A stretch of 64,000 nucleotides of DNA. It comes from an uncultured delta proteobacterium (lineage in GTDB: Bacteria; Myxococcota_A; Polyangia; Fen-1088). The translations under genes were made by a program, and so were the position numbers. The number at the start of each line of letters is the position of its first letter. Positions within the stretch are counted from its first letter, which is position 1. The notes beneath the pieces were generated by a model that made no database searches, was not told where the DNA came from, and worked only from the letters and a program-made list of their open reading frames with translations. This document shows positions 9,144-46,527 of the stretch, piece after piece. The stretch lies in the NCBI GenBank assembly GCA_963782545.1, contig CAWAKD010000007.1, positions 1,104,378 through 1,168,377 on the forward strand, in the 5' to 3' direction.

Positions 9144-11741
<2,598 letters not shown>

Positions 11742-11821: not shown

Positions 11822-12583
11822 CTATTTCTTCTTCTTCGGAAGCGTGAACAGGGTGGCCGGGAAGTGCTCATCGAAGGCAATGTCGACGATGCGACCCTCC
11901 ATGGTGACCGGGCCAACCGTGACGTCCTCTTGGTGCCAGACCAGGACACCGTCGACCGGGCGCCAGTCGGAGAACCTGGTGATGTAGGGAACCTGCCCGC
12001 CTTGCGAGGCTTGCACGCCCTTTTCCAGAATGCGCAGGTGGGTCTTGCGGTCGAAACACACGACCGTCGGCGGGCCCTCGACCTTGTCGAGCTCGACGCA
12101 TTCCCAGGATTGGCCGGCGGGCACAGACACCGGCGGGGGAACCGCGTGGGCCTTGGCGTAGACCTCGCCCAGCCGCCATTCCGAGTCCCAGGTGGCAGCG
12201 ATGCGAACATCCTCGGCCTCGGCACCCTTGAGCACGCGCAATCCGTTGATGGGATCCTCGGCCCACGCCGTGTGCCCGTCCGAGCCGCGCAGGAAGACGC
12301 CCATCTTCGGCATTTCCGAGGTACTCAGGATCTTGCCACCGCGTGCAATGCGGGTTTCCTCGATGCTGGTGAAGTGCATGGCCTTGACCGACACCTCGCG
12401 TCTGACCCGCATGGTCTTATGCTTCTTCCAGGCCTTCTCGTCGCCGATGGCCTTGGCGTAGTCGGCGAGGATCGACTTGGCGTCGCGCAGGGAGGCTGGC
12501 GCGACCGCGGCGGGGAGAGAAGCCACGGGGCCGGCGTCGATGGCGAAGACCAATGCAAAGAGGGCGATCATGATGTGGCCCAT
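11822..12583 (-). CDS. Hypothetical secreted protein.
   Basis: ORF with signal peptide [30 protein letters not shown] and a poly-Lys C-terminus. No recognisable catalytic motif. Confidence 0.55.
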
Positions 12584-12633
12584 GCTTGAGCCAGAAGCAA
12601 GATTACGTCAAGCACCGAGGGCGTGCTCGCCCG

Positions 12634-14144: not shown

Positions 14145-14633
14145 CTAGTAGCGAACCTTCCCGGGAACCTCGGCGTAAGCCACGAACGGCGCCTCGGCGT
14201 CCGCGCAAAGCACGTGCTCGCGCACCATCGGCGGTTCGCCACCCGCGGCGTCGAACGCTCGATAGAAAACCGCATCGTCGAAGCCGGCGGAGGCGGCGGA
14301 CTGGCGCGTGGCCGCGTAGTAGACGGCGCGCGGCCGTGCCCACAGGATGGCGCCCAGACACATGGGACAGGGCTCGCAGCTCGCGTAGACATCGCAGCCA
14401 TCGAGCTGAAAGGATCCGAGCGCGGCACACGCGGCGCGGATGACCTGCACTTCGGCGTGCGCGGTCGGGTCGTTGTTGGCCACCACCGCGTTGGCGGCCT
14501 TGGCGATCACGACGCCGTCCTTGACCACCACCGCGCCGAACGGCCCGCCCTGCCCCGTCTGTGCGCCGCGCACGGCCTCGGCGATGGCCAAGCCCAAAAA
14601 ACGCCGTTTGTCGTCCAGCGATGGCACGCTCAC
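14145..14633 (-). CDS. CMP/dCMP-type zinc deaminase (TadA/GuaD-like nucleoside or nucleotide deaminase).
   Basis: C-terminal 162 aa of track ORF 14145..15566. Zinc motifs HAE and PCPMC. The GTG start overlaps the yggS stop as GTGA. Confidence 0.75.
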   Translation of the reverse strand: MSVPSLDDKRRFLGLAIAEAVRGAQTGQGGPFGAVVVKDGVVIAKAANAVVANNDPTAHAEVQVIRAACAALGSFQLDGCDVYASCEPCPMCLGAILWARPRAVYYAATRQSAASAGFDDAVFYRAFDAAGGEPPMVREHVLCADAEAPFVAYAEVPGKVRY

Positions 14634-17247: not shown

Positions 17248-18540
17248 CTAGGCCAAGGCCAGCGCCTCGTCGAGCGCGTCGATTAGATCGTCGGAATGTT
17301 CCAGGCCGACCGACAGGCGCACGAGATCCGGGGTCAAGCCACCCGCGCGCTGTTGCTGCTCCGAAAGCTGTGCGTGCGAGGTACTGGCGGGGTGAAGGAT
17401 GAGGCTCTTGGCGTCGCCCACGTTGGCAAGGTGCGAAAACAACTTGATGTTGTCGATGACCTTGACCGCGGACGGAAAGCCGCCCTTGACGCCGAACACC
17501 ACCATGCCGCCAAAGCCGTTCTTCAGATACTTGCCCGCTCGGTCGTAGCTCGGATCGTCCTTGAGGCCCGGGTAGCGCACCCACGCAACCTTCGCGTGCT
17601 TCTTGAGGTGCTCCGCGACCTTGAAGGCGTTTTCGCTATGACGGACCATGCGGACCGGCAAGGTCTCGATCCCTTGCAGGAAAAGGAAGGAGTTGTCGGG
17701 CGAGATGGCCGCGCCCAGGTTGCGCAGCGGCACCGTGCGCACGCGCAACGCGAAGGCGATGGGCGCCAAGGCCTCGGGCAGATCGTGCGCCCAGCGCAGG
17801 CCGTGGTAGTTGCTGTCGGGCTCGTTGAGCAAGGGGAAACGCGGGTTGTTCTTCCACTGGAACTTGCCCGAGTCGGTGATGATGCCACCGATGGCGGATC
17901 CGTGGCCACCGAGCCATTTGGTAAGCGAGTTCACGACGATGTCGGCGCCGTGGTCGATGGTACGCAGGAGGTATGGCGTGGTGAAGGTGCCGTCCACGAT
18001 GAGGGGAAGACCGTGCTTGTGTGCGACCTCGGCCAGGGCAGCCACGTCGGTGAAATCGAGCACCGGGTTGCCGATGGTCTCGACGAAGACGGCACGCGTC
18101 TTGTCGGTGATGGCCTTGGCGAAGTTCTTCGGATCCTTGGCGTCGACGAAGTTCACCTTGATGCCGAACTGGGGCAGGATGGAGTCGAACTGCGTGTAGG
18201 TGCCACCGTAAAGATTGTTGGCCGAGACGATCTCGTCGCCGGACCGCGCCAGGGTGATGATGGCGTAGAAGATCGCCGCGGTACCGGAGGCCAGCGCCAC
18301 CGAGGCCGCGCCACCCTCGAGCTGCGACACCCGCTGTTCGAGGATGTCGGTGGTCGGATTCATCAGCCGCGTGTAGATGTTGCCCAGCTCCTTGAGCGCG
18401 AAGAGGTTGGCGGCATGCTCCGTGTTCTTGAAGACGTAGGAGGTTGTCCGGTAGACCGGCACTCCGCGCGACAGGGTCGCGTCGGGGGTCTGTCCAGCGT
18501 GCAGGGCTAGGGTTTCGAATCGGTAGGGTTTCGCGCTCAT
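17248..18540 (-). CDS. metY: O-acetylhomoserine/O-acetylserine sulfhydrylase (PLP, Cys/Met metabolism family).
   Basis: 430 aa with the PLP-lysine region VVNSLTKWLGGHG. Near-canonical OAH sulfhydrylase throughout. Confidence 0.9.
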   Translation of the reverse strand: MSAKPYRFETLALHAGQTPDATLSRGVPVYRTTSYVFKNTEHAANLFALKELGNIYTRLMNPTTDILEQRVSQLEGGAASVALASGTAAIFYAIITLARSGDEIVSANNLYGGTYTQFDSILPQFGIKVNFVDAKDPKNFAKAITDKTRAVFVETIGNPVLDFTDVAALAEVAHKHGLPLIVDGTFTTPYLLRTIDHGADIVVNSLTKWLGGHGSAIGGIITDSGKFQWKNNPRFPLLNEPDSNYHGLRWAHDLPEALAPIAFALRVRTVPLRNLGAAISPDNSFLFLQGIETLPVRMVRHSENAFKVAEHLKKHAKVAWVRYPGLKDDPSYDRAGKYLKNGFGGMVVFGVKGGFPSAVKVIDNIKLFSHLANVGDAKSLILHPASTSHAQLSEQQQRAGGLTPDLVRLSVGLEHSDDLIDALDEALALA

Positions 18541-18570
18541 GGTCTGTCCTCTTTCCGTTGTGTCGACGCG

Positions 18571-18632
18571 GTTGTAGCACGCCGTATATCGCCGTCAACC
18601 ATAAAGGAATTGTGTCCTATATTATGGACACC
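18571..18632 (-). promoter_or_regulatory. Candidate metY promoter (TTGACG-N16-TACAAC, then an AGAGGA RBS) with an upstream palindrome GTGTCC-N8(tatattat)-GGACAC at 18613-18632.
   Basis: Sequence inspection of the metY 5' region; the AT-rich palindrome is conspicuous in a GC-rich genome. Confidence 0.3.
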
Positions 18633-18710
18633 AATACGGGGCGGTTCGTGAATTGCCCGGGTTTCCCGCGCGACGCCACGGCAACCCCGTATCGAATGAT
18701 GGACAACGTG

Positions 18711-19362
18711 CTAGCGCGCGTAAATGATCAGGTCGTGGTAGCGCCCCTCCGAGGTGCCCGGGTTCTCGTAAGCGTGGGCCTCGTCGGCGCGGAAGGAGAT
18801 CGAATCTCCCGGGGCCAGCGCGTAGACCTCGATGCCCACGCGCAGGTTGAGCGTGCCGCTCAGGACCACGACGATTTCGCGGGTTCCGGCGGCATGCGGA
18901 TCCGAGGCATGCGAGGCCCGCGCGGCCAGCCGCAACTCGTAGAGCTCCACCCAGGGATTCGAGCCGGCCGGTGACAGTGGGCGACTCTCCATCTTTCCGT
19001 CGGCCGAACGCAACACCTGGGCCTCGCTCCGGCGAAGCACGGACACCCCGTGTTCTTGCCCACCGATGAGATCGGAGAACGGGAATACCAAGGCCCACCG
19101 CGATCTTCCACAACACGCCGAGCGAAGGATTGCTCTTGTATAGCTCGATCTGCGACAAGGCGGCGCGACTGACCCCTGACGCCACGGCCAGCTCGTCGAG
19201 CGAGAGACCGCGCGCCTTGCGTTTTTCTCGCAGTTGCGTTCCGACTCGCTTGGCCAGGTCGGCGGCACCCACGTCGTCACCAGGCGGGAGCGGGGCCCTG
19301 CGCAAGCTCGCTGCCGGCGCCCGCTTACTTCTTGTCTGGACGGGTGTCTTTTCTTTCTTCAT
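18711..19362 (-). CDS. XRE-family HTH transcriptional regulator with a C-terminal cupin sensor domain. A 1-nt frame break lies between the HTH and the cupin.
   Basis: The HTH (LSLDELAVASGVSRAALSQIELYKSNPSLGVLWKIAVGLGIP) is in track ORF 18622..19362; the cupin (FSDLIGGQEHGVSVL...GDSISFRADEAHAYENPG) is in ORF 18711..19280. Junction at ggt att ccc g ttc. GAGGG RBS. Confidence 0.75.
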
Positions 19363-19614
19363 GTCGCCCTCGTTCCGCGCACCATACCATCAGCCCGCTG
19401 CCGCGACAGGCAGGACACGGGGCATGGCGCCGCGGCGTCCTCCCACAGGGGTGAACGTAGGTGCGGGCGAGTGTTCCCCAGCACGCGAAACCATCAAAAA
19501 GATTGGCGGTCGCCGCCGGAACAGCGATATTGCCCAGAGCCCGCAAGTTGGGTGTTGTTACTTCTGGACTTCATCGCGGGTCCCTCTCACCCTTGTCGAA
19601 ATCAGGAGTACAAA

Positions 19615-20949
19615 ATGCGGTTTGGTGTTGTACCGACTCTACGATGTTCGTCGCCACTTCATTCCTGGCCTGCGTTGCCAACACGCATTTCACCGAGACA
19701 TACCGCTGGGAGTGCGGGCGGCCAGCTCCAGCTTCGGGCGGCACCACCTCTTCCGGCGGTAACACATCCTCCGGCGGTTCCATCTCCTCGGGCGGTTCTT
19801 CGGCCTCGGGCGGCACAAATCCTCCGGGGGCGCCTTGGCCTCGGGCGGCATCACTCGTCCGGCGGTTCTTCGGCTCGGGCGGCACCGCCTCCTCGGGGGG
19901 CGCGTCAGCTTCGGGCGGCACCACATCCTCGGGTGGAGTGACCTGCTCGGGCGGTTCGGGGGGACCACCAGCCATCGTGACCGGCCCCTGCACCGACGTT
20001 CCCCGCCCGATCAATCCAACCATGCGCGGACTGGCTGGCTTGGGGCAACTGCGCAACCAGCTGGTTCGTGGACAACAACTACTGCAACAAGACGTGCGGC
20101 CGCTGCGGCGGCGGTGGCGTGACCGGTTCCGGCGGCGTGACCAGTTCCGGCGGTTCGTCGGCACGCGGCGGTTCGGGAGGGGCAGCGGGCTCGGGCGGGA
20201 GAACTTCCTCGGGCGGGGTGACCGGCTCGGGCGGTTCCGCCGGCAGTGGCGGTAGCACCAGCCCGGGAGGCACCAATCCACAGTTCACGGGCACGAATGG
20301 CTGGGCAAGCCGCTATTGGGACTGCTGCAAGCCTTCGTGTGGATGGACGGCCAATTCCAATCCTCCAGTTCCGAGCTGCGCCAAGGACGGGACGGGCCGA
20401 GTCGGCGTAGACAGCAAGAACGGCTGCGAGGGCGGGGGGTCGGCCTTCGAATGCTACGACTTTTCGCCCTGGTACGATGCGAGCACCAATATGTCGTACG
20501 GTTTCGCGGCCTACAATGGGGTCGCCTGCGGCACCTGTTTCATGCTGCAATTCACGGGCAGCAGCAACTCCGGCCCCAACGACGGCGCCGCCGCGATCAA
20601 AGGCCAGCAGATGGTCGTGCAAGTCATCAATATCGGCGGCATCCAGGCCAACCAGTTCGACCTCCTGATCCCAGGTGGCGGCGTAGGCGCCATGAATGGT
20701 TGCGCGACCCAGTGGGGGTCGTCGACCGACCTCGGCGTGCAGTACGGCGGCCTGCTTTCGGAATGCGGCGGCGACCCTGCCTGCATGAAGGGCAAGTGCT
20801 CCTCGGTTTTCGGCAATGTTTCGTCGGTGTTCAAGGCCGGCTGCGACTGGTTCACGGGTTGGTTCAGCTCGGCCGACAATCCCAATCTGGTCTACAAGCA
20901 GGTATCGTGCCCCTCGCAGCTCACCTCGAAGACCGGCCTCTCGAAGTAG
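19615..20949 (+). CDS. Glycoside hydrolase family 45 endoglucanase with an N-terminal signal, Gly/Ser/Thr linkers and a small Cys/Trp-rich CBM10-like module. Several frame disruptions in the linker-coding repeats.
   Basis: The catalytic domain in ORF 20068..20949 matches GH45 hallmarks (SRYWDCCKPSCGW; QMVVQVINIGG..QFDLLIPGGGVG; ADNPNLVYKQVSCP), including both catalytic Asp contexts. CADWLAWGNCATSWFVDNNYCNKTCGRCG resembles CBM10. A strong AGGAG RBS precedes the ATG at 19615. Confidence 0.75.
19730..19985 (+). repeat. Degenerate tandem DNA repeats (ggcggYwcYtcYtcSggc units) encoding SGG(T/S)(T/S)SSGG linkers.
   Basis: Visible periodicity. The correct linker reading switches frame three times within about 50 nt (around 19830, 19855 and 19876). 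Confidence 0.6.
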
Positions 20950-21138: not shown

Positions 21139-21158
21139 GTTCATAGAGGTTCATAGAG
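21139..21158 (+). promoter_or_regulatory. Perfect tandem direct repeat GTTCATAGAG x2, 7 nt upstream of the ATG of the downstream fibro-slime gene.
   Basis: Seen directly. The 10-bp period resembles OmpR/PhoB-type response-regulator direct-repeat sites; the core TCATA resembles a Pho box half-site. Confidence 0.3.
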
Positions 21159-21165
21159 ATTCTCC

Positions 21166-23149
21166 ATGCGGTCCTTTCCACCTTTGCTGCTCGTCGCGGT
21201 TTCGGGTTCCCTATTCATGGTCGCGTGTGTGTCGGCCAACATCATTCAGACGGGCCCCACGGGTGGAGGGGGCGATGAGGCCGATGCAAACACCATCCAT
21301 CTCGATGCGCCATCGACAACTTTCAAGCTCGATGGGAGCACTTTGTCGCGCGCCGGATCTGACGCTCCTCCCGGACCGAATTGCGGCAACGGCGAGCGGA
21401 CCAGCGACGAGGCCTGCGACGACGGCAATACGGTATCGGGCGACGGCTGCGCCAACAACTGCCTCAGCGTCGAGCCGGGTTTTTCGTGCGTCCCCCCAGG
21501 AAAGCCCTGCCGCCCGGTGGCTCGCTGCGGTGATGGCTTGGTGGTGTTCCCCGAACAGTGTGACGACGGCAACCTTGCAGCCGGCGACGGCTGTTCGGCC
21601 GGCTGCAAGGTCGAGATCGGCTGGAAGTGCGATGGCAACCCCAGCACCTGCTCGCACACCACATGCGGCGACCACACGATCGAAGGCGCCGAGGGCTGCG
21701 ACGACGGCAACAGCATGCCCTTCGACGGCTGCTCGGCCGATTGCCAAAACGAGCCCTCCTGCAAAGGCAGCGGCGCCTGCACCTCGCGATGTGGTGACGG
21801 CATCGTGCTAAACGAGGAATGCGACGACGGCAACAACACCGACGGCGACGGTTGCTCGCACGACTGCAAGATCGAGTCTGGTTTCAAGTGTTCGCAACCC
21901 GATATCGGCGACAAGATGATGGTGCCGGCCGTGTACCGCGACTTCAACTACCACAACCCGACCGACTTCGAGGCCGGGGTCACCGGTTCGAAGACCCCCA
22001 CCACGGGCCTGGTCAAGAGCGACCTCGATGCCAACGGCAAGCCGGTGTACACCGGGGTCACCGGCAACGCTGTTCACATCGAAAGCGCAGCCTCGCTCGC
22101 CAAGTGGTACACCAACGTCGACGGAGTGAACCACGCGACCACGGGCAAGCTGACCCTGTGGGACAACGGCAAGGGCGGCTACGTGAATCGGTACAAGGAG
22201 GACGGAACCCAATACTTCAACACCGAGCCGGCCTACTACTGCGGAAACGTCGGTTCGGAGAAGACCGACGCCAACGGAGACCCGATCCCGTGCACCTCCA
22301 TGTACGCGACGGCCACCAATTGCGACGAAATGGCCGCCAAGGGCGAGGAGATGCTGCCGGGGAGCTGCATCTCCACCAACGGTTCGTACAGCGCCAAGTT
22401 CATCGTTTCGAAGATGGATGGCAACCCTTGCTTCTTCCCCGTCGACAACGACAACTTCTCGAAGGACAGGAATTACGCCGCAGATTCCTCCCTACTACGA
22501 CGCCTCGAAGTCGTGGCCGAAACAGGTCGACGACGCCGGGAACGTGATCATGCACAACTTCAGCTTCACCAGCGAGGTGCGCTACTGGTTCAAGTTCGAC
22601 AAGAGCAAGACCTACACCCTCGACTTTACCGGCGACGACGATGTCTGGGTGTTCATCAACGGCAAGCTCGCAGTCGACCTGGGCGGCATCCACTCGCCGG
22701 TCAGCGGCAGCATCGTGATCGGCTCGAACGGCAACGGTACCACCACGGTGACCTCGTACGATGACCAGGGCGTCGCCACCACCCCGACCACGTCGACCGC
22801 CGACCTCGGCTTGCAGGACGGCAAGGTTTACGAGGCCGCCGTCTTTCAAGCCGAGCGCCAGACCACCGGCTCGTCCTACAAGTTGACACTGAGCGGCTTC
22901 AATGCCGCACCCAGCGACTGCCACCCCGATTGCGGCGACGGCGTTCTGGAGATCGGCGAAGAGTGCGACGATGGTCCGGACAATGGCAAGGGTGGCTACG
23001 GCAGCTGTGGTGCAGACTGCACCTTGCAGGCCGGCTTCTGCGGCGACAACGTGGTCCAGGAGGGCGAGGACTGCGACGAAGGCGCCCTGAACGGCACCGG
23101 CGCCGACCACTGCCCGTCCGGTTGCCACTACCTCATCCCGATTCTCTGA
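21166..23149 (+). CDS. Second Cys-rich-repeat + fibro-slime domain secreted protein, a paralog of the gene at 24..2022. A +1 frame change falls inside the fibro-slime domain near 22470-22495.
   Basis: ORF 21166..22764 (signal MRSFPPLLLVAVSGSLFMVACVSA, four CGDG..CDDGN repeats, start of fibro-slime YRDFNYHNPTDFEAG) continues in ORF 22418..23149 (HNFSFTSEVRYWFKFD..GDDDVWVFINGKLAVDLGG, then C-terminal repeats). Confidence 0.8.
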
Positions 23150-23207: not shown

Positions 23208-24473
23208 ATGCTCGACATTCGACTCGTCCGTGAAAAACCCGATGAGGTCCGCGCAGGGCTGCGCAAGCTGGCCGCGGACGTGGACCTCGACGCCCTGCAT
23301 CGCCCTCGACGAGGGCGTGCGCAAGCTCAAGAACGATTCCCAGGCCATCCAGGCCGACCAGAATCGCCTGTCCAAGGAAATCGCCAAGGCGCCCAGCCCC
23401 GAAGCGCGTGCGGAGATCAAGGCCAAGGGCGCCGCACTCAAGGAAAGGAACGAGCAGCTGCTCAAGGATCTGGCCGCGCAGGAGGCCGCTCTCGACGAGA
23501 AGTTGCTGGAGTTGCCCAACCTGCCCCACCCGTCGGTGCCCGTGGGCAAGGATGAAAGCGAAAACCGCATCGTGCGCGAGGAAGGCGCGAAGCGCGCCTT
23601 CGCCTTCACCCCGAGGCCCACTGGGATCTGGGTCCGCGCTGGGGCATCATCGACTTCGACCGCGGGGTCAAGATCTCGGGCAGCCGCTTCTACGTGCTCA
23701 AGGATTGGGGCGCCCGCCTGCAACGCGCGCTGATCTCGTTCATGCTCGACCTGCACACCCGCAAGCACGGCTACACCGAGGTCCTGCCGCCCTACATGGT
23801 TCGACGCGAGTGCCTGGTGGGCACGGGCAATCTGCCCAAGTTCGGCGACAATCTGTACCACGACGCCAGCGAGGATTTCTGGTTCATCCCCACCGCCGAG
23901 GTGCCCGTCACCAACCTCTACCGCGATGAGGTTCTCGACGGCGCACGGCTCCCCATCAAGCACGTGGCCTTCACCGCGTGCTTCCGCCGCGAGCAGATGG
24001 CCGCCGGCCGCGACACCCGCGGCATCAAGCGCGGCCACCAGTTCGACAAGGTCGAGCTGGTCAAATTCGTCAGGCCGGAAAACTCCATGGACGAGCTCGC
24101 TGGGCTGCTCTCCGACGCGGAGGATGTCCTCAAAGCGCTGGAGCTCCCCTACCGCGTGGTCGAGATGTGCACCGGCGACCTTTCCTTTTCGGCTATGGTC
24201 AAGTTCGACCTCGAGTTGTGGGCGCCCGGCTGCGGCGAATGGCTCGAAGTCAGCTCGTGCTCGAACTTCGGCGACTTCCAGGCTCGTCGCGCGAAGATCC
24301 GTTTCAAGGATGGCAAGGAGAAGAACCGTTTCGTCCACACCCTCAACGGCTCCGCTTTGGCCTTGCCAAGAACCCTGATTGGTGTTCTCGAAACCTACCA
24401 GCGGGCGGATGGAAAGCTAGACGTCCCCCTGGCGCTTCGACCATACTTCGATGGTATCGACGTGCTCGGGTAG
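23208..24473 (+). CDS. serS: Seryl-tRNA synthetase. The reading frame is broken twice (about 23300 and 23618) and restored.
   Basis: N-terminus MLDIRLVREKPDEVRAGLRKLAADVDLDAL (frame 0); coiled-coil arm IALDEGVRKLKND...AFAFTPRP (frame 1, track ORF 22930..23733); catalytic core HWDLGPRWGIIDFDRGVKISGSRFYVLKDWGARL...FRREQ... (frame 0, ORF 23694..24473). Confidence 0.85.
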
Positions 24474-24479
24474 TCCAAC

Positions 24480-25349
24480 GTGGAAGGCAAGCCGCTCGCA
24501 CTGGCCGTTTTCTTCTCTGGCGTCTTCGCCATCGCCATGGGTGTGCTGATCCTCCATGCCGCCAGCGCGCCGCCACCCACGCCCAAGCGCCCGGAACCCC
24601 CGCCGCCCCCCTCGGCGATGATCAACTCGGACATGCGCTTTTCGGTCGTCTACTACAAGGCGCTCATCGAGCAGGATGCCAAGTCCTACGGCATTGCGCC
24701 GCCCTCCTACGAGGATCTCTTGCAACCCAACCCCTACTTCGATGAACTGCGCGAACGGCAGCACCTGCACGTCAAGTCGCCCATCGAAACCCGTCATCTG
24801 CGCATCACCCTGGAGGTACTCAAGGAGACCACGATCATCGAGTCCCATTCCCTGTCTACCGACCACCTGGTGTTACGCATCGAAAATCGCACGCCGCTCT
24901 TCCTCGCCTACCGCGTCCGCACGACGGTTCCCGACAAGCAGAAGTGCGCGATGAAGGCCGAGCTGGCGCACAACGCCATCGCCCTCGAACCCGAGCAGAC
25001 CATCCTGCGCACCGAGTGCCTGTTTCGAAAGGATGCGCGCATCGACGTCACCAGCATCGAGGTCATCGAATTGCCCGCTCTTTCCGCCTACTACGTGTCT
25101 CGCGTGCCACCCAACAGCACCTTCTACGATCCGAGAACTTCGGCTGGCCACACGCCCCCACGAGGAGTCATGTGCCCGCAGACCTTCTCCTGGCGAGACA
25201 TCAGGGAAGGCATCGAAAAGAAGCAACTGGGCTGGCGCGACGTGATGGACTTCTATGCGCGTCACAACTGCAGTGAATACTCATTTTTCAAGTCCTATCG
25301 TTACCGCAGGGATCCATCGGAACCCCTGCCCGCCCGTTCACTCGACTAA
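24480..25349 (+). CDS. Hypothetical protein with a single N-terminal TM anchor.
   Basis: ORF with a GTG start; hydrophobic LALAVFFSGVFAIAMGVLIL followed by a Pro-rich stretch. No recognisable domain. Confidence 0.5.
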   Translation: MEGKPLALAVFFSGVFAIAMGVLILHAASAPPPTPKRPEPPPPPSAMINSDMRFSVVYYKALIEQDAKSYGIAPPSYEDLLQPNPYFDELRERQHLHVKSPIETRHLRITLEVLKETTIIESHSLSTDHLVLRIENRTPLFLAYRVRTTVPDKQKCAMKAELAHNAIALEPEQTILRTECLFRKDARIDVTSIEVIELPALSAYYVSRVPPNSTFYDPRTSAGHTPPRGVMCPQTFSWRDIREGIEKKQLGWRDVMDFYARHNCSEYSFFKSYRYRRDPSEPLPARSLD

Positions 25350-25383
25350 CCCTTTGATATTCGCTACATTACCCGAATCGGTT

Positions 25384-25728
25384 ATGACCAAGGCTGACCT
25401 CATCGCGGTGGTCGCGGACAAGCTCAAGTTCCCTTGGGCACGTGCGGAGCTTCTCGTCGATCAGATTTTTTCTTGTATGACCCAGGCCCTGCAGCAGGGG
25501 GAAGGCATCGAAATCCGCGGCTTTGGCAGCTTCACGGTGCGCGAGTACAAGGCTTACGAGGGACGAAATCCGCGCACCGGCGATACCGTCCATGTCAAAC
25601 CAAAGCGCCTTGCCTTCTTCAAGGTCGGCAAAGAACTGCGCGAGCGCGTGAACCACGGTCGCTCCTTTGCGCCACCGGTCAGCGTCCCCGGGCCACCCAG
25701 CAATCCGCTGCCGCCAGACAACGCATGA
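25384..25728 (+). CDS. ihf: Integration host factor / HU family DNA-binding protein with a short Pro-rich C-terminal tail.
   Basis: Internal Met of ORF 25255..25728: MTKADLIAVVADKL...GEGIEIRGFGSFTVREYKAYEGRNPRTGDTVHVKPKRLAFFKVGKELRERVN. Confidence 0.85.
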   Translation: MTKADLIAVVADKLKFPWARAELLVDQIFSCMTQALQQGEGIEIRGFGSFTVREYKAYEGRNPRTGDTVHVKPKRLAFFKVGKELRERVNHGRSFAPPVSVPGPPSNPLPPDNA

Positions 25729-33472: not shown

Positions 33473-33539
33473 CGGCCGTGGTCGATGTCACCCAGCGAAT
33501 CGCTCGCTGGCACGCGCGGAGCAGGTCAGCCGCGTCTGG

Positions 33540-33797
33540 TCAGCGACCGCGCTGGTGCTCTTCCATCAGTCGGATGACGTCATCCACAGTGTGCAACTCC
33601 ATGAGAGTGTCGACATCGGGGTCGAACTCGTACTTCTCGGAGATGCATGAGACCACCTCGATCCGCTTCAAACTGTCGAGATTGAGGTCCTCGTTCAGCC
33701 GAAGGGCACCCTCGATGCGTTCCACCGGCAGGCCCGAAACCTCGGCGAGAACGGGATAGAGCTCGGCACGGAACTGTTCAATATCTACGTTCGACAA
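33540..33797 (-). CDS. Acyl carrier protein.
   Basis: LNEDLNLDSLKRIE carries the phosphopantetheine-Ser motif DSL. TTG start 7 nt after an AGGAG RBS. Confidence 0.75.
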   Translation of the reverse strand: MSNVDIEQFRAELYPVLAEVSGLPVERIEGALRLNEDLNLDSLKRIEVVSCISEKYEFDPDVDTLMELHTVDDVIRLMEEHQRGR

Positions 33798-33859
33798 GAT
33801 TTGACTCCTTGATAGGCAAACGCCTGCCTGGTGGCCAAGAACGCCCGGCAGGCTCCAGT

Positions 33860-35590
33860 TCACGGCAAACCCGTTCCACGGTAAAGCACCTCTAGATCGT
33901 GTGCGAGATAGCGCTGCTTCATGAGTTGGCGCCGAAGTTTGCCACTCGTGGTCTTGGCCACGTTGCCTTTGCAGACGAGCAAGACATCGTAGGGCACAAT
34001 CTCACAACAAGCCAAGACCGCCTTCGTGATGAGCGGAATCGTCTCGCCTAAATCGCAGCTCGTGAACTTGGGCTCCACTTCTTGAATGATGACCAGCGAT
34101 TCCTCATCGCCCAGGTCAATCGAGAAAGCCACGGCGCAGCCGGCTCTGAGCGCGGGGTGGCTCGCGGACACGCCGTGCTCGATGTCCTGCGGGTAGTAGT
34201 TGCGCCCTTTGACGATGATCAGGTCTTTGCGGCGGCCGGTGACGAAAAGCTCGCCGCGATCGAGGTAGCCGAGATCTCCAGTCCGCAGATAGGGGCCTTC
34301 CCCTCTGGCCAGGCGCCCGCCAAAGCTTTCATCGCTCTGCTCGGGCCGGCCCCAGTAGCCCGGCGCCACGGACGGGCCAGCCACCCAGATTTCGCCGATC
34401 TCACCATCCGCACATACGGCGAGGGTTCGCGGGTTCACCACCTGCACTTCCGTACCGTCGATCGCCGTGCCACACCCCACGAGAGTCCTACCCGGGCGGC
34501 CCGCGGCCGGGCGGGCTACGTCCGCCGCCAGTGCTTCGGCATCGAGCGTCTGGGTAACGAGCGGGGCCGAGTACCCGCTGGCAGTGACCATCAGGGACGC
34601 CTCGGCCAGCCCGTAGCAGGGATGGAGCGCATGGGGCGGTAGGCCGACGGGCTCGAACTTCGCGCGGAAGGCCGCGAGCGAGCTGGCGCGGATGGGCTCG
34701 GCGCCGCAGAACGCGACTTTCCACGAGCGGAGGTCGAGATGGGACATCTCCTCGGGCCTGATACGCGCCACGCACAGATCGAACGCGAAGTTGGGCCCGC
34801 CGCTGATCGTGGCGGCGAAATGCGTGATCGCCTCCAGCCATTTGATGGGCCGCAGGACGAACGCCATCGGCGACATGAGGTAGACGGGAAACCCCGCAAA
34901 CAAGGGCTGCAGGATGCCGCCGATCAAGCCCATATCGTGATACGGCGGCAGCCAGATGCAGCCCACGGAGCCGGCATGGCTTTGAAAGTTCTTTTGGATA
35001 GCCTGCAGGTTGTCGAGCAGATTCCGATGGCTGAGCATGACCCCCTTGGGCTCGGCGGTGGACCCCGAGGTGTACTGCAGGAATGCGATCGAATCCCCAC
35101 GGCGAGGGACCGGCATGGGCCTGCCCGCGTCCGCGCCGGCCGGATCCTCGTTGACGATCCAGTCGAACGGGGGCCGAGCGGCAGCGTGGACATGAGAGGC
35201 CAGCTTCTGGGCAATGGCCGTCGACGTGAGCGCGGCGCGCGGGCGAGCATCCTCGATGATGGACCGAATGCGATCGAAGCTCTTGTAGTACTGGGGAGGA
35301 TAGACGGGTACCGCGATGGCGCCCGCGTAGAGACAGCCGTAGAAGGCGGCGATGTAGTCGAGGCCCGGCAGATGACAGACGAGAACCCTGTCGTCTTCCT
35401 TCACCACGGTGGAAAGGCGCGCCGCCACGGCCAGTGCCCGCGCGTGCAACTCGCCGTACGTACAGGGGCTCTCGTCCAGCCTGCTGCCGAGAAAGCTGTA
35501 GGCAATCGTATCGGGCGTCGCCTGAGCGCGATGCTGCAAAATCTCAACCAGGGTGGTCCAAGGCAAGTCCTTCACCGTAGCAGGCGGCAA
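33860..35590 (-). CDS. Fatty acyl-AMP ligase (FAAL).
   Basis: LQYTSGSTAEPKGVMLSHRNLLDNL. The FAAL-type insertion and C-terminal region are present; it sits directly upstream of the ACP. Confidence 0.9.
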   Translation of the reverse strand: MPPATVKDLPWTTLVEILQHRAQATPDTIAYSFLGSRLDESPCTYGELHARALAVAARLSTVVKEDDRVLVCHLPGLDYIAAFYGCLYAGAIAVPVYPPQYYKSFDRIRSIIEDARPRAALTSTAIAQKLASHVHAAARPPFDWIVNEDPAGADAGRPMPVPRRGDSIAFLQYTSGSTAEPKGVMLSHRNLLDNLQAIQKNFQSHAGSVGCIWLPPYHDMGLIGGILQPLFAGFPVYLMSPMAFVLRPIKWLEAITHFAATISGGPNFAFDLCVARIRPEEMSHLDLRSWKVAFCGAEPIRASSLAAFRAKFEPVGLPPHALHPCYGLAEASLMVTASGYSAPLVTQTLDAEALAADVARPAAGRPGRTLVGCGTAIDGTEVQVVNPRTLAVCADGEIGEIWVAGPSVAPGYWGRPEQSDESFGGRLARGEGPYLRTGDLGYLDRGELFVTGRRKDLIIVKGRNYYPQDIEHGVSASHPALRAGCAVAFSIDLGDEESLVIIQEVEPKFTSCDLGETIPLITKAVLACCEIVPYDVLLVCKGNVAKTTSGKLRRQLMKQRYLAHDLEVLYRGTGLP

Positions 35591-35716
35591 TGCGCAGCCT
35601 TGCTTCTCCTTGGCGAAGATAGTGCCACGGCGTGATTGGACTCGTCCATTCCAGGAGGACTGACTGGGTGAATTGATCGAGGGGACCGTGGCGGCCGTGG
35701 CGGTTGTGGCACAATC

Positions 35717-37147
35717 TCATGCTCGGCTTGGTTCGGCGCCAGCGGTCGTGGAGAAGCGGAAACGCGCGCCGCCCTCGGGGCCGCGGTCGACCTTCACGGC
35801 GCTGCCGTGGTCGCGCGCGATCTCCGCCACGAAGGCCAGTCCGAGCCCCGTGCCACGCTCCCGCGTGGTGAAGAAGGGCGTGAAGATCTTGGCGCGTATC
35901 TCATCGGGCACGCCCGGACCGCTGTCGCGAACCTCCCATTCGATGCGTTGGCGATCGGACGCTTCCGCGCGCGCCGCGAGCACGACCCGCCCGGATGCGC
36001 CAGCGGCCGTGGTCGCGTTCTTGGCCAGATTGAGCAGGGCGCGGCGCAGTTGCGCTCGATCCGCGCGCGCCACCATCCCGGACGCGCACTCCACGGAAAA
36101 GGCGGGCCCGCCTGCCGCCGGGCGCGAGATCTCCGCGATTTCATCGAGCAGGGTGGAAACCGGAAACGCCTCCATCGCCGGGACTGGGCGTCGGGCGAAG
36201 TCGATGAAGTCGCTCACCACGTTCTTGAGGTAGCCGATCTCGCGCTCGATCCGCGCGATCTCGGCCAAGCGCTCGGGCTGCTGCACCAGCCCCTCACGCA
36301 GCAGTCCGGCGTACAGCTCGAGGCCGCCCAAGGGATTGCGAACCTCGTGCGCGATCCCCGCCAGCATCATCTGCATACGCTCGTCACGCGCGTGGAGCGC
36401 GCCCCTCATCTCGTCGAGACGCCCAGCCAGGTAGCCGATCTCGTCCCGCGTTTCGGCCACCACCGTGCCTGCCAGATCGCCCTGTCCGATGCGTTCGGCG
36501 GCCACGGCCAAGCGTTCGAGCGGTCCGGTCATGCGCCGGGAAAGCCACGCTGCCAAGACCACGATCATCGCCAGGCTGACGATCCCGCCCACCACCAGCC
36601 AGCGACGGAACAGGGCCAGCGCATCGAGGTATTCGGCACTGGCCTCGACCATCGCGAAACCGGTGCCGCCGACGCGTGCGTAACCGCGCTTGTAGGGCAA
36701 GCCGTCGCGACCGATGAAGAGCGGCGAGGCGGTGGCCTGGCCGGCGCCGGCCTTCTCGATCTCGGGCGCGTCCGCGCCAAGCTCGCGGGCCGGCGCGCCC
36801 AGAGGCAGTACGTTCTCGCTGTCCGCCCGCACGGTCAGATCGCGCGCCACCAGCATGACCCTGCGCACGGCCAGACGCTCACGTGCTTGTTCGACCCGAT
36901 GGCGGAGATTGGCGTAGGTCATCGATGTCTCATCGCCGGGCCCGATCGCGGCGAGTTGTTCGGGCAAGACCAGCATGGACACCGCCGTCGCGGCCGTGGC
37001 CAACCGCCGCCCGAGCTCCTGTTCCAGCACGCGCCGCGCAACCTCGTGCGCTGCGGCCCCGAAGAGCGCCAGGGCAAGCGTGGCGGGCACGAGCATGGCC
37101 ACGAGCAACTTGGCGAGCAGCCTTCCGCGCGGCAGGCGAACCGACAT
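35717..37147 (-). CDS. Sensor histidine kinase: 2 TM, periplasmic loop, HAMP, HisKA and HATPase_c.
   Basis: Internal Met MSVRLPRGRLLAKLLVAMLV of ORF 35717..37345. H-box IAHEVRNPLGGL; N/G boxes present. Confidence 0.85.
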   Translation of the reverse strand: MSVRLPRGRLLAKLLVAMLVPATLALALFGAAAHEVARRVLEQELGRRLATAATAVSMLVLPEQLAAIGPGDETSMTYANLRHRVEQARERLAVRRVMLVARDLTVRADSENVLPLGAPARELGADAPEIEKAGAGQATASPLFIGRDGLPYKRGYARVGGTGFAMVEASAEYLDALALFRRWLVVGGIVSLAMIVVLAAWLSRRMTGPLERLAVAAERIGQGDLAGTVVAETRDEIGYLAGRLDEMRGALHARDERMQMMLAGIAHEVRNPLGGLELYAGLLREGLVQQPERLAEIARIEREIGYLKNVVSDFIDFARRPVPAMEAFPVSTLLDEIAEISRPAAGGPAFSVECASGMVARADRAQLRRALLNLAKNATTAAGASGRVVLAARAEASDRQRIEWEVRDSGPGVPDEIRAKIFTPFFTTRERGTGLGLAFVAEIARDHGSAVKVDRGPEGGARFRFSTTAGAEPSRA

Positions 37148-37241
37148 GCCACCTAGTGTAGCGGTGACGCGAGAGGAGCGCGACTCCGGCGACTCACGGG
37201 CAGCCGGCGTAGGCGCATGCCCAGCACCGGCCGTCGCCGAG

Positions 37242-37794
37242 TCATCTCGTGAGTAATCGCAAAGCGACCAGCGCCAACCACGCGCATCCGACCACGCTGA
37301 CAAGCGCTGCGATCCAAGCGCGCCGTCGTCCCCACGCCGTAACATCCTTCCGCCCCAGCGCGCGCACGGACAGGACGAGGGAATAGGGATGAACCAGGCC
37401 CATCAACCATAGGCTGACCAGCGCGACCCGCATGGCCCGGTAGGCCGCGCGGTCGCCGGGGCCGATAAGCCCGTCGTCATCTTTGTCCTGTTCCACGGGC
37501 TGTCCACGACCCGATTCGAGCGAGGCTTCTCCAGCATCCGCAAGGTCGGCTGCTTCCGACACCCCCGGATGTTGCAAGATCTGTTTGGCTCGCTCCAGGT
37601 CCGCGCGGCGCACTTGCACGCGAATGCCACCGATCGCTCGGTTGAGGTGCCAGGTCTGCGCCGCCATGATCTGGTCGGGAATGAAGCACTCGAGCCCTTC
37701 CGCGTCTAGGCGACCGCACAGCAGTTGCGCCGCCGTCAGCTCACCGCAATGGGTGAGAGTAACGACTTCCTCGGGATCTTCGCGGTCAGACACA
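37242..37794 (-). CDS. DUF2007-like small protein with a C-terminal TM segment.
   Basis: GTG start (VSDREDPEEVVTLTHCGELTAAQLLCGRLDAEGLECFIPD). Weak family call. Confidence 0.45.
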
Positions 37795-40676: not shown

Positions 40677-41444
40677 ATGTTCATTCGACGATTGCGATGG
40701 TTCGGGCTTCTCGCGCTTGCTTGCGCTGCCACGGGGAGCGCGGGCTGCGGCGGTTCGTCGTGTGGCAAATGTGCCGGCCCAATGCCCTACGACACACGCA
40801 CGGTCACGCCGGACGAGCAGACGGCGCTCGGCTTCTCGGCCAATGACGTGAAGGCCCGCCTCGTCGGGCCGTGGGTGGGAACCCTGGCCTGGGTTGCCGA
40901 TCCGGCCACGGTCACAGCCCATCCCGCCGCCGGAACGACCACGGTCACGATCGCTCTCCGCTACGCCTTCGACGAGCGATCGATCATGGCCTACGAGCCG
41001 TCCGCGGTGTACACCGACGCGTCCGCTTCGATCCTGCATATGGAGCTTCCGATCCACCTGCTCGTCACCACCGCCGATGGCGCGCTCGCCGAGGACCACC
41101 TGACGGCCATCAGGGCCACGGGCGCCTCGCAGGGTACGCTTCTCGACCTCTTCGGCGCCACACGGGGCACGCCGGTGCAGGGAAGCTACACCGCGACGGC
41201 AGTGGACGCTGCTCGCTACCTCGGCACCGAGAACGAATTGAAGGTCGAGCTCGCTCCCGAGACCGCGACCGGCGGCCTCATCTTGTACGGCCTGGGAAGC
41301 GCCAAGAGCGCGGACGGCACATCGGACATCAAGATCGCCGACGAGCTTCCCGTCGCGACCTTCGCGGCCGCCGCCATCGCGGACATCGCCCAGGTCGATA
41401 GCGGTGCCGGCCCGGTGGACGGAGCGGTCTCGGCTGATCGATGA
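40677..41444 (+). CDS. Hypothetical lipoprotein.
   Basis: MFIRRLRWFGLLALACAATGSAGCGG lipobox. Confidence 0.55.
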   Translation: MFIRRLRWFGLLALACAATGSAGCGGSSCGKCAGPMPYDTRTVTPDEQTALGFSANDVKARLVGPWVGTLAWVADPATVTAHPAAGTTTVTIALRYAFDERSIMAYEPSAVYTDASASILHMELPIHLLVTTADGALAEDHLTAIRATGASQGTLLDLFGATRGTPVQGSYTATAVDAARYLGTENELKVELAPETATGGLILYGLGSAKSADGTSDIKIADELPVATFAAAAIADIAQVDSGAGPVDGAVSADR

Positions 41445-41532
41445 CCGCCGCGCAAGCGGCCCAAAGCAGGCGCCCGTCGGGCATATGCGACCAAGCGTTG
41501 TCTCGGCGGCCTTTGCGATGTATGGTGAGTGT

Positions 41533-41760
41533 ATGGCGCGTCTCACTTCAACCACGGTTCGACTAGGAGAGGATGATATCCGAGCTTTGAAGAAGGCTCG
41601 TGCTGCTGGGCATTCCGCTTCGGAGCTTGTCCGAAAGGGGTTGCGCGTTGTGGCCTCGCGGTACTACTCGGGCCGCCGCGCCCCTACGACCGGTCTGTTC
41701 GAGTCGACCGACAGCAAACTAGGCGACGAGTCTCTGCTCTTAAAGGATCTCAAGGATTGA
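41533..41760 (+). CDS. vapB: VapB-like ribbon-helix-helix antitoxin.
   Basis: Internal Met MARLTSTTVRLGEDDIRALKKARAAGHSASELVRKGL; overlaps vapC as TTGA. Confidence 0.6.
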   Translation: MARLTSTTVRLGEDDIRALKKARAAGHSASELVRKGLRVVASRYYSGRRAPTTGLFESTDSKLGDESLLLKDLKD

Positions 41761-42188
41761 AGTCAGCACTTGTCGCGGATACCGGTGGACTCCTCCAGGC
41801 ACTCGCGTGCGACCGAGCCGGTGCGCCAAGCTTTCCGGAGTACGAGGAGGCGCTGACGTCAGCGAGCTCAGTAATCGTGCCTGGGCTTGTCCTCGCCGAG
41901 GTTGACTACTTTCTCAGAGACAACCGTGCAGCGATGAGAAGGCTGATCGCGGACATCTTCGATCCAGAAACACGATATGAGTATGAACTGCCGCTATCGT
42001 CCGACATCGCCAGATCCATAGAACTGGACGCAAGGTTCGCAGGGCTCAGCCTCGGCCTGGTTGATGGCACCGTGGCCGCAGTGGCTGAACGACGGCGCGT
42101 CTACCGGGTCTTGACGACCGATCGGCGCGACCTTGGTGCCATACGAATCGGACCTCGCCTGTCGCAGGCCCTTGAATTGGTTCCATGA
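41757..42188 (+). CDS. vapC: PIN-domain toxin VapC.
   Basis: Conserved acidic residues (ALVADTGGL, ...VDGTVAAVAERRRVYRVLTTDRRDLGAI). Confidence 0.75.
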   Translation: MKSALVADTGGLLQALACDRAGAPSFPEYEEALTSASSVIVPGLVLAEVDYFLRDNRAAMRRLIADIFDPETRYEYELPLSSDIARSIELDARFAGLSLGLVDGTVAAVAERRRVYRVLTTDRRDLGAIRIGPRLSQALELVP

Positions 42189-43324: not shown

Positions 43325-44215
43325 TCACGGTTTTCTGGCCCGGACAAACGCGCTCATGACCGCGCCATCGAGCGCGGCGAGGGCCGGAGTCGGGTCGCTC
43401 CCGCAGCACGATGACGACGCCATCTCGGCCGCGTCGTCCTTGCTGTAGATCCGGGTCGCCTCGACCGTGACGTCGTGAAAACCGGCCGCGCGCAGCTTGC
43501 CGACGTAGTCGGATTCCACCAGGGCGCCCGCCACGCATCCTGTCCACAGGTTCAGGGATCCGCGCACGTCCTCAGGCAATTCACGACGAAGCACGATGTC
43601 GGACACGGCGAATCGCCCACCAGGCTTGAGCACGCGAAATGCCTCGCGCAGCACCTTGTCCTTGTCGGCCGACAGGTTGATGACACAATTCGAGATGATC
43701 ACGTCCACCGCGTTTTCCGGCAACGGGATGTCCTCGATGGCTCCCTTCAAGAACTCGACGTTGGTGGCGCCTGCCTTGGTCTTGTTCTTCTCCGCGAGAT
43801 CCAGCATCTCGTCGGTCATGTCGAGCCCGTAGGCCTTGCCGGTCGGCCCGACCCTTCTCGCGGACAGGAGCACGTCGATGCCGCCCCCGGCGCCGAGATC
43901 GAGGACGATTTCGCCCGGTCGTAGCTCGGCCAGCGCGGTCGGGTTGCCGCAGCCGAAGGACGCCAGAAGCGCCTCTTCGGGCAGGCCCTCGGTCTGCTCG
44001 GCGGCGTACAGGTCGCGTGTGATGGGATCGGTGCCTCCCATGCCGGCCGCCTTGGAGCCGCAGCAGCAAGGCTTGGCCCCCCGGATGACTTCCTTCACGG
44101 CCTGGCCGTAGCGCTCCTTGACGACCTCACGGATATTCTGCGCGGACGCAGGTTCGCCGGCGGAACAACGGGTCGATCCATGGTCAGGGTTCATGACGAC
44201 GAGGCGGGTGGACAT
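43325..44215 (-). CDS. arsM: Arsenite S-adenosylmethionine methyltransferase.
   Basis: AAGGAG RBS; SAM motifs [35 protein letters not shown]; conserved Cys pairs. Confidence 0.85.
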
Positions 44216-44289
44216 TTTGTTCTCCTTTATCGATGTTTCTCGATATAGCGGGCAACCGATGGATGATGAATCCTTGGGGGCAAGAACCT

Positions 44290-44694
44290 TCAGTCCGCGA
44301 ACTGGTCGGCAAACTGGAAAAGCTGCGCGCGTACGCTCTTGTCCACGGCGTAGTAGACCCACGTTCCCCGACGCTCGGCGGTTACCAGGCCCGCCTCGCG
44401 CAGCAGCCTCAGGTGATGCGAGATGGTGGGCTGACTCAAACTCTTGACGTGATCCTCGATCTGGCAGACGCAGACCTCGCCGCCCGCCGCGGCCAGAAAC
44501 CCGAGGATCGTGAGTCGGGTCTCGTCGCCGAGTGCCTTGAACAACCCGGCAAAGGTGGAAAGATTCCTGAACTTCGGCTTGGCACGCGGAGCACAGCAAG
44601 CGATTGCTGGTTCTCCTGGCTTGACGATGGCGAGAGGTCGGGGCACGCAGAGAGCATGGCGTCTATATCGACCGCTGTCAATATAGAAAATCAT
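44290..44694 (-). CDS. arsR: ArsR/SmtB-family metalloregulator.
   Basis: HTH with the metal-binding CVC (GGEVCVCQIEDHVKSLSQPTISHHLRLLREAGLV). Start codon uncertain. Confidence 0.75.
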   Translation of the reverse strand: MIFYIDSGRYRRHALCVPRPLAIVKPGEPAIACCAPRAKPKFRNLSTFAGLFKALGDETRLTILGFLAAAGGEVCVCQIEDHVKSLSQPTISHHLRLLREAGLVTAERRGTWVYYAVDKSVRAQLFQFADQFAD

Positions 44695-44795
44695 CGATGC
44701 AGGCGGCCGTCACGGCTGGGGCACCCCCTCACGGGTTTCCACCTCGCGGCGAGATGCGGCGTGCGGGAAGCCATAAACAAGGATAAGAAACCTCC

Positions 44796-46505
44796 ATGAT
44801 CGAGCGAGACACCATGAAAGCCGGCGTCGTCTTCGTCGGCGGCGGCCCGGCCGGGCTTTCCGGCGCCTTGCACCTGACCAAGCTCATCGCCAGGCACAAC
44901 GCGGCCGTGGCCAAGGGGGAAAAGCCGGGCACGCCCATCACCGAGGAAACCCTGGGCGTCGACATGGTGGTCGCGGTCATCGAGAAGGCCGCCAACCTGG
45001 GCGACCACATCCTGTCAGGCGCGGTCATGGAACCCAAGGCCCTGGCCGAGCTGATTCCCGACTACAAGGAGAAGGGCGCTCCCATCGAGGGCGAGGTGAA
45101 GAGCGAAGGGGTATACTTCCTCACGCGCAAGCGCGCCTTCAAGCTCCCGATGGTGCCGCCGCAGATGAACAACCACGGCAACCTGATCGTGTCGCTGGGC
45201 AGATTGGTAAAGTGGCTGGGCGAGCAGCTCTCCGCCGCCGGCGTCGATGCCCTCACCACGTTCGCGGCGCAGGAGGTGCTGTACGAGGGCAATCGCGTGA
45301 TCGGCGTGCGGCTCGGCGACAAGGGCAGAAATCCCGACGGCACGCCCAAGGGGATCTTCGAGGCCGGCCCCAACCTGCTGGGCAAGTGCACCGTCCTGTG
45401 CGAAGGGACGCGCGGCTCGTGCACCAAACAGCTCGTGAAGAAGCTGGGGCTCGACGAGGGCAAGAACCCGCAGGCCTACGCCACCGGGGTGAAGGAAGTC
45501 TGGGAGTTCGAGAAATCACCCCTGCCCGCCGGCCACGTCATCCACACCATGGGCTACCCCATGGATAGCCAGACCTTCGGCGGCAGCTTCATCTACGCCC
45601 TGTCCGGCAATCAGATCGGTCTCGGCGTGATCACCGGCCTCGACTACCACGACCCGCTCATCGATCCGCACGTGCAATTCTGCAGGTTCAAGCAGCATCC
45701 CTTCGTCCAAAAGCTGCTCGAGGGCGGCAAGGTCGTCTCGTATGGGGCCAAGACCATTCCCGAGGGCGGCTACTATTCCATGCCCAAGCTCGCCATGGAC
45801 GGCGCGCTCCTCTGCGGCGACAGCGCCGGTATGGTGGCCATGCCCAAGCTCAAGGGCGTCCACTACGCCATCAAGTCCGGCATCCTGGCCGCGGAGACGC
45901 TGCTTGAGGCCCTGGTGACTGGCGATTTCTCGTCCAAGCAGCTCGCGAAGTACGAACGCGCGGTGGAGACTTCGTACATCGTCAAGGACCTGTACCCAGC
46001 GCGCAACTTCCGCCAGCTCATGAAGGCGGGTCTCGTCGGCGGCACCCTCCACGCCGCGCTCATGACCGTCACCGGCGGGCGCTACCCCCTCGACAAGATC
46101 GTCATCGACGAGGACCACAAGGACACACGAAAACTGCTCGATGTGTACCCGCAGGGTGCCCCCGCGAGCGCCTTCAAGTACGACAACCAGGGCACCACCT
46201 TCGACAAGCTGACCGACGTCTACCACTCGGGCACGCGCCATGAGGAGAAGCAGCCCTGCCACCTGAAGGTCGACACCAGCCACTGCGAACGCTGCGCCGA
46301 GGAGTACGGTAACCCGTGCGAGAAGTTCTGCCCGGCCAATGTCTACGTGGTCGAGCGCGAGGAGGCCACCGGCAAGTTCCAGAAACTGCGCATCGACTTC
46401 TCGAACTGCGTACACTGCAAGACCTGCGATATCAAGGATCCCTACGGCGCCATCAACTGGGTCCCCCCGGAAGGCGGCGGCGGACCGCTGTACAAGAATC
46501 TGTAG
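44796..46505 (+). CDS. Electron-transfer flavoprotein:ubiquinone oxidoreductase (ETF-QO).
   Basis: FAD motif VVFVGGGPAGLSGA; C-terminal 4Fe-4S CVHCKTCDIKDP. Confidence 0.9.
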   Translation: MIERDTMKAGVVFVGGGPAGLSGALHLTKLIARHNAAVAKGEKPGTPITEETLGVDMVVAVIEKAANLGDHILSGAVMEPKALAELIPDYKEKGAPIEGEVKSEGVYFLTRKRAFKLPMVPPQMNNHGNLIVSLGRLVKWLGEQLSAAGVDALTTFAAQEVLYEGNRVIGVRLGDKGRNPDGTPKGIFEAGPNLLGKCTVLCEGTRGSCTKQLVKKLGLDEGKNPQAYATGVKEVWEFEKSPLPAGHVIHTMGYPMDSQTFGGSFIYALSGNQIGLGVITGLDYHDPLIDPHVQFCRFKQHPFVQKLLEGGKVVSYGAKTIPEGGYYSMPKLAMDGALLCGDSAGMVAMPKLKGVHYAIKSGILAAETLLEALVTGDFSSKQLAKYERAVETSYIVKDLYPARNFRQLMKAGLVGGTLHAALMTVTGGRYPLDKIVIDEDHKDTRKLLDVYPQGAPASAFKYDNQGTTFDKLTDVYHSGTRHEEKQPCHLKVDTSHCERCAEEYGNPCEKFCPANVYVVEREEATGKFQKLRIDFSNCVHCKTCDIKDPYGAINWVPPEGGGGPLYKNL

Positions 46506-46527
46506 TCGGCTACGAGTGGAGCAAGTC

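Follow-up and report, generated by a model that had tools for sequence, protein, structure and literature searches.

The gene for seryl-tRNA synthetase (serS) in the window analyzed here, a 64-kb stretch of DNA from an uncultured myxobacterium, changes reading frame twice, and we put at roughly 0.9 the probability that both changes are indel errors in the consensus of the deposited assembly, introduced by base calling, assembly or polishing. The frame breaks are confirmed as real in this sequence and lie far beyond chance. The conclusion that they are errors draws on comparison with relatives and on patterns of evolution rather than on sequencing reads, and it is favored because the indels are unique to this lineage, the repaired gene is full length and undecayed, and the neighboring genes are split in the same manner. 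In the living cell, serS would be an ordinary uninterrupted gene of 421 codons encoding a class II seryl-tRNA synthetase (SerRS). The sequence-only reading of this DNA had likewise favored indel errors over biology, and this view is supported by the absence of the indels from all relatives compared, by purifying selection on the gene and by the lack of recoding signals.

Reading frames of serS and the two indel sites

On the forward strand between 23208 and 24473, serS leaves frame 0 at about 23297, continues in frame +1 as far as about 23613 and from there on is back in frame 0 (Table 1). Each of the three pieces was translated in its own frame (23208-23300 in frame 0, 23299-23619 in frame +1 and 23619-24473 in frame 0). 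Read from the ATG at 23208, frame 0 has the beginning shared by all bacterial SerRS (MLDIRLVREKPDEV...) and turns to junk after 30 codons, while the +1-frame piece taken alone matches Seryl_tRNA_N (PF02403) over profile positions 32-108 of 108 (E = 8e-13), and the last piece matches tRNA-synt_2b (PF00587) over positions 7-179 of 179 (E = 9e-40), its translation displaying motif 2 (FRRE...) and motif 3 (GSALALPRTLIGVLE). When the three are joined, they produce a 421-aa protein that matches PF02403 over positions 1-108 of 108 followed by PF00587 over positions 7-179 of 179, and that aligns with the TIGR00414 serS equivalog profile over positions 1-417 of 418 with a score of 494.4 bits, for which the trusted cut-off is 301.65 bits. 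As written, no single ORF encodes this protein, and three pieces in two frames are needed to recover it.

Table 1. Coordinates, within the 64-kb window, of the serS pieces, the indel sites and the other split genes
Feature	Position	Strand	Description
serS piece 1	23208..23297	+	codons 1-30 (MLDIRLVREKPDEVRAGLRKLAADVDLDAL), frame 0; Seryl_tRNA_N profile 1-41; start aligns with all relatives
serS piece 2	23299..23613	+	105-107 codons, coiled-coil tRNA-binding arm, frame +1 only
serS piece 3	23616..24473	+	class II catalytic core, frame 0, stop codon 24471-24473
Premature stop	23553..23555	+	ends unshifted frame-0 ORF 23208..23555 (115 aa)
Site 1, one extra base	23295..23298	+	frame 0 to +1; alignment columns 87-91
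Site 2, one missing base	23609..23614	+	frame +1 to 0; alignment column 407; resolution limit 23609-23619
Fibro-slime/DUF4215 gene 21166-23149	22480	+	one extra base, TACGCC[G]CAGATT; two frames
GH45-like secreted protein gene (ATG ~19615, to 20949)	19640..20019	+	eight single-base indels
XRE-HTH/cupin regulator gene 18711-19362	19084	-	one extra base, GGTAT[T]CCCG (minus strand)
Paralogous fibro-slime gene	~1005-1011		ORFs 12-1142 and 973-2019; junction ...ITDSAAP / PHPNFE...
LPG_synthase_TM (lysylphosphatidylglycerol-synthase-TM-like, flippase-like) gene	~54910-54955		ORFs 54297-55373 and 54892-55452

These translations and the matches to PF02403, PF00587 and TIGR00414 bear out two earlier statements, that serS passes from frame 0 to frame 1 and back, and that the intervening SerS arm is readable only in the shifted frame, the latter through the PF02403 match at E = 8e-13. 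The further description of the two changes as compensating holds arithmetically, as the shifts cancel, but it fails for translation, because frame 0 meets the stop codon at 23553-23555 before it reaches the second site. The repaired protein shares 92-94% identity with the SerRS of related Myxococcota MAGs, and its genes are set in a conserved neighborhood. In its arm, its core and motifs 2 and 3, it is the same as the bacterial type-1 seryl-tRNA synthetase (TIGR00414; PF02403 plus PF00587), whereas the ORF in the window is interrupted twice and the annotated product of the deposit is a 163-aa fragment that both begins and ends out of frame. A search with the first 178 residues of the protein recovered this product as P0150 (NCBI and ENA), and it coincides exactly with the window's ORF 23242-23733 in frame +1; its middle part alone is real SerRS, both ends being out-of-frame junk, and its source is one contig of 1,866,838 bp. 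Since P0150 matches the +1-frame ORF together with its out-of-frame ends, the indels sit in the public deposit. Five other frameshifted ORFs of the window (23208-23555, 23694-24473, 23742-24473, 22418-23149 and 18622-19362) have no exact protein record; the gene caller used for the deposit chose other starts.

The indels were placed by a DNA alignment with seven relatives and by parsing the gaps of pairwise alignments against 12 loci. At site 1 the window reads GAC GCC CTGC ATC GCC and the relatives GAC GCC GT-C ATC GCC, and each of the 12 loci spanning this position gives a +1 gap at 23297-23301. Leu results whether the G or the C after it is dropped, and the relatives have Val here; the alignment does not discriminate between these two candidates for the extra base, and a substitution may have occurred alongside the insertion. 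An extra C had been proposed at about 23300 (ccctg[c]atc), and of this the single extra base stands but its identity does not, as removal of the G or of the C both give Leu. At site 2 the window reads ACCCCG-AGGCC against ACGCCGCAGGCC in the relatives, or, by codon, ACC CCG -AG GCC CAC against ACG CCG CAG GCC CAC, and a -1 gap is found at 23609-23613 against 13 of 13 loci covering the site. Homologues carry FTPQA, FTPEA or FTPQP before HW, and the missing base would most parsimoniously be a C, either the first base of CAG or one from the C-run, giving TP(Q/E)AHWDLG. The loss of one base, which had been placed at about 23618, is thus upheld, but its location moves, most parsimoniously, to 23609-23614; the earlier placement lies 4-9 nt downstream, and the TPRPHWDLG that it would yield has the same length but is a less parsimonious solution. 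Pairwise alignment with the orthologous loci, which is close to one of the checks that had been suggested, returned the same two unpaired events (+1 and -1) every time.

Orthologous loci, selection and split neighbors

In a scan of species-representative genomes the nearest relatives were uncultured Myxococcota MAGs, and those at the top share 94% (L001), 93% (L008), 89% (L003) and 88% (L002) SerRS identity with the window, the others being lower. Both L001 and L008 are MAGs of the Microflora Danica project, and L003 has SPAdes-style contig names. In all 11 related Myxococcota loci compared, serS is uninterrupted, encodes 419-421 aa and is without both indels; this set includes seven Myxococcota MAG loci, compared by DNA alignment, and three JGI contigs. 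The best 120 protein matches are mostly 419-427 aa long and none has a frameshift. Against every relative, just two unpaired gaps in serS have a length not divisible by three, the +1 at 23297 and the -1 at 23613. The three JGI contigs carry the whole neighborhood as single genes, encoding a Cys/Met enzyme, a regulator, a GH45-like protein, a fibro-slime protein, SerS, a 289-aa protein, HU and a PPDK-like protein. As a side observation, the 90%-identity SerS cluster of P0001 includes two JGI proteins of 658-659 aa (P0124 and P0134) that are named 'fibro-slime domain-containing protein', which suggests that the fibro-slime and serS ORFs are fused on some contigs.

For the analysis of selection, the two sites were repaired and the gene was placed in a codon alignment with six orthologues. 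The dN/dS of the repaired serS is 0.08 between the window and L001 and 0.10 between the window and L008, compared with 0.08-0.19 for intact pairs, and in the out-of-frame segment it is 0.12-0.13 for the window against L001 and L008 and 0.09 for L001 against L008. When changes are polarized with outgroups, those assigned to the window's own branch divide into 47 synonymous and 5 nonsynonymous (24:4 for L001 and 22:6 for L008), and one of the nonsynonymous changes affects the codon at the site-1 junction. The repaired gene has no stop, nonsense codon, truncation or larger deletion and, like its orthologues, comprises 421 codons. As judged from these substitution patterns, the repaired serS is under purifying selection as strong as that on intact orthologues, the out-of-frame segment included. 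With its full orthologous length, the lack of stops and the low dN/dS, serS shows none of the marks of a gene long out of frame. A decaying pseudogene was rejected on the same grounds, as dN/dS is low and there is neither an excess of lineage-specific replacements nor any nonsense codon.

The genes just upstream of serS, which were probed in the window with the proteins of relatives, are broken as well. When ten syntenic genes of L084, one of the three JGI contigs with the whole neighborhood, are mapped to the window, six each stay within a single frame, and the other four, a contiguous block that starts with the regulator and ends with serS, are interrupted by frame changes. The fibro-slime gene, a myxococcal cysteine-rich repeat gene for which relatives have one ORF of 641-750 aa, matches the window at 21139-22479 in frame 1 and at 22481-23146 in frame 2, such that the cysteine-rich repeats and the Fibro_Slime domain are in different frames. 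The GH45-like gene contains the worst-affected stretch of the window, with eight indels in 380 nt (-1 at 19640, 19818, 19853, 19874, 19957, 20000 and 20019, and +1 at 19971), mostly in a low-complexity linker rich in Gly, Ser and Thr. The JGI contig L083 is ~95% identical to the window over 17879-20188 and its GH45-like frame is open; in L001 the GH45-like ORF is intact at 478 aa, and alignments at 19637 and 20020 give further evidence of the defect. The extra base in the regulator gene is seen against L001, L008, L003 and L083. Once repaired, the regulator is 216 aa long, which is typical among the 120 homologues listed (197-264 aa), and its best match (P0255), on the JGI contig L083, is 97% identical.

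Beyond serS, at least 12 further single-base indels are found in five other genes, bringing the count to at least 14 events in six genes. Two of these genes are far from serS: at ~1008, cysteine-rich repeats in one frame are followed by a Fibro_Slime/PA14 part in another, probably through another single-base frameshift to judge from the junction, and in the LPG_synthase_TM gene, far from the main cluster, one frame matches PF03706 over positions 4-173 and a second frame over 188-302. The main cluster consists of 12 indels in 4.5 kb (19.0-23.7 kb), all of single bases and eight of the 12 deletions, with no nonsense codons or larger lesions among the events, and its densest run lies in low-complexity, G+C-rich sequence. 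Every indel that can be verified against relatives falls within 19.0-23.7 kb; in the flanks that relatives cover (13.4-18.6 and 23.7-36.4 kb) there are no window-specific frame-breaking indels, and most other genes of the window look intact by Pfam coverage.

Origin of the indels and competing explanations

The most likely source of the deposited sequence is a long-read assembly that did not receive short-read polishing, because the contig is 1.87 Mb long, the organism is an uncultured soil-type myxobacterium, and its closest relatives come from a Nanopore-only project; that the technology was of the Nanopore type is what we infer. Microflora Danica assemblies are Nanopore-only and were built with Flye and one round of Medaka (PMC12313526), and indels are the dominant type of Nanopore error, a source of spurious pseudogenes and a problem that worsens at low coverage (PMC8103633). 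A comparison among the relatives served as a control for assembly-specific noise: within this neighborhood, two other genes are split between frames in L008, namely the PPDK-like gene (L008 ~14203-14210) and the 289-aa gene that follows serS (L008 ~11939-12048), and no such split occurs in L001 or L003. The events in the window resemble the consensus indels of long-read MAGs in being of single bases, mostly deletions, and absent from orthologues, in splitting conserved genes into adjacent ORFs, which swells the number of pseudogenes called, in being denser in low-complexity sequence, in occurring on a very long contig (1.87 Mb) and in the presence of the same symptom in L008. Long homopolymers are the classic context of Nanopore failure. 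Unlike the usual Nanopore errors, the serS sites lie outside such runs, as do the indels at 22480 and 19084, and the local density of 12 indels in 4.5 kb is far above that of the rest of the window.

This clustering, with its clean flanks, would also fit a consensus collapsed from co-occurring strains, one that jumps from haplotype to haplotype within a divergent stretch and acquires indels through their alignment, which would still be an artefact. The apparent substitution that accompanies the insertion at site 1 (CTGC against GT-C) points the same way. However, the divergence of serS by substitution is clean and shaped by selection, and frame splits also occur far from the cluster, at ~1008 and ~54.9 kb. 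The same strain is present in the Logan contigs of run ERR11571143, in which two intact window proteins are encoded; one contig (L081) has 1 mismatch in 2,895 bp over window positions 43823-46717 and another (L082) is 100% identical, with 0 mismatches in 1,089 bp, over 24354-25442, both away from the indel sites. That these contigs are short (1.1 and 2.9 kb) and that one breaks inside serS at 24354 fits branching or low coverage, but there is no direct sign of more than one strain, and we regard a strain mosaic as an improbable origin of the indels.

A very recent and genuine inactivation, with SerRS supplied by a second serS copy elsewhere or with a dying or defective variant having been sequenced, we consider very improbable. 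In its favor, the deposited contig carries the indels, and no intact copy of serS from the same strain was found: 19 guessed intact SerS sequences (L, C, R or V at the junction combined with QA, EA, RA, RP or KA, full length or cut at residue 392) had no exact match in a collection of 15 billion proteins, and searching JGI metagenome contigs for exact patterns that span site 2 gave no match. The window has one serS locus, and as the contig measures at least 1.87 Mb and the window spans 64 kb of it, a second copy could lie outside it. Nevertheless, serS is essential and has neither a nonsense codon nor an excess of nonsynonymous change (47 synonymous against 5 nonsynonymous, dN/dS 0.08-0.12), and its two independent indels would need to have arisen within a vanishingly short time, and four consecutive genes would need to have been hit at once, including eight indels in 380 nt at ~95% identity. 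Mutational decay proceeds mostly by substitutions and larger deletions rather than by single-base indels alone, yet here fourteen single-base indels, with essentially no other damage, are spread over six genes, one of them essential.

It would be more surprising still for the indels to be carried by the cell, with SerRS produced from a second copy or by paired recoding in opposite directions and with the split neighbors forming a locally hypermutated segment, and we give this reading very little credence. If the indels were real, paired opposite recoding in one gene would be unprecedented. Recoding itself, either by ribosomal shifts of +1 near 23297 and -1 near 23613 or by slippage of RNA polymerase, would account for the joining of the three pieces into a perfect full-length SerRS with shifts that cancel, but it can be dismissed as next to inconceivable, as neither shift is found in any orthologue, no slippery, slippage or stimulatory signal is present at either site, and the same account would have to be stretched to cover a dozen more sites, all in unrelated genes. 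Specifically, there is no X XXY YYZ heptamer at site 1 (GAC GCC CTG CAT CGC) or site 2 (TTC ACC CCG AGG CCC), no stop or hungry codon, long homopolymer, or A or T run for transcriptional slippage at either, and site 1 lacks the combination of an in-frame stop or rare codon and a Shine-Dalgarno-like element upstream of it. RNA folding downstream of sites 1 and 2 is unexceptional (z = -1.61 and -0.77), with 16 and 39 of 200 dinucleotide shuffles, respectively, folding as well or better, and the frameshift is conserved in none of the 11 related loci and in none of the best 120 protein matches. The only likeness to programmed frameshifting of the prfB type (+1) or the dnaX and IS type (-1) is that a functional protein is obtained through a change of frame; unlike those systems, serS lacks both a slippery sequence and a stimulatory element, its shifts are not conserved, and two opposite ones would be needed in one gene.

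Consequences for the annotation of the window

With consensus indel errors as the preferred explanation, the biological interest of serS itself is low, as it is an ordinary housekeeping gene, and the value of the finding lies in quality control. The window, and by extension the 1.87-Mb contig, would carry on average about one frameshifting indel per 4-5 kb, locally rising to as many as one per 50 nt. The earlier suspicion that serS casts doubt on other pseudogene calls in the window is vindicated, as three upstream genes and at least two further genes are split likewise, and any split ORF, 'pseudogene', truncated domain or odd small ORF within it should be presumed an artefact until checked against reads. 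Public protein databases already carry at least one junk product from the serS locus, P0150.

Several other candidates for frame breaks were tried and rejected. The frame switches called by a composition HMM at 9165 (between a ClpB and a DnaJ-like gene), at 12586 (between an S41 peptidase gene and its downstream neighbor), at 14643 and 15382 (Maf, YggS-like and deaminase genes) and at 33879 and 46515 are gene boundaries, the last two of them normal ones. The suspected truncation of a Crp-like gene at 38461 is a natural gene end. Suspected frameshift fusions of an ArsR gene with the ArsM-like SAM methyltransferase gene that follows it (43325-44709) and of a small ORF with a PIN-domain (VapC-like) gene (41404-42188) were also discarded, as both pairs look intact, the former with natural gene ends. 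Rfam and tRNA scans of the window returned no matches. Finally, a 2.2-kb segment at 33483-35716 that carries an AMP-binding (acyl-CoA-synthetase-like) gene is missing at this place in L001 and L008, and the AMP-binding ORF comes after the histidine-kinase gene at 35720-37402 on the minus strand and shares its frame, with one stop codon between them.
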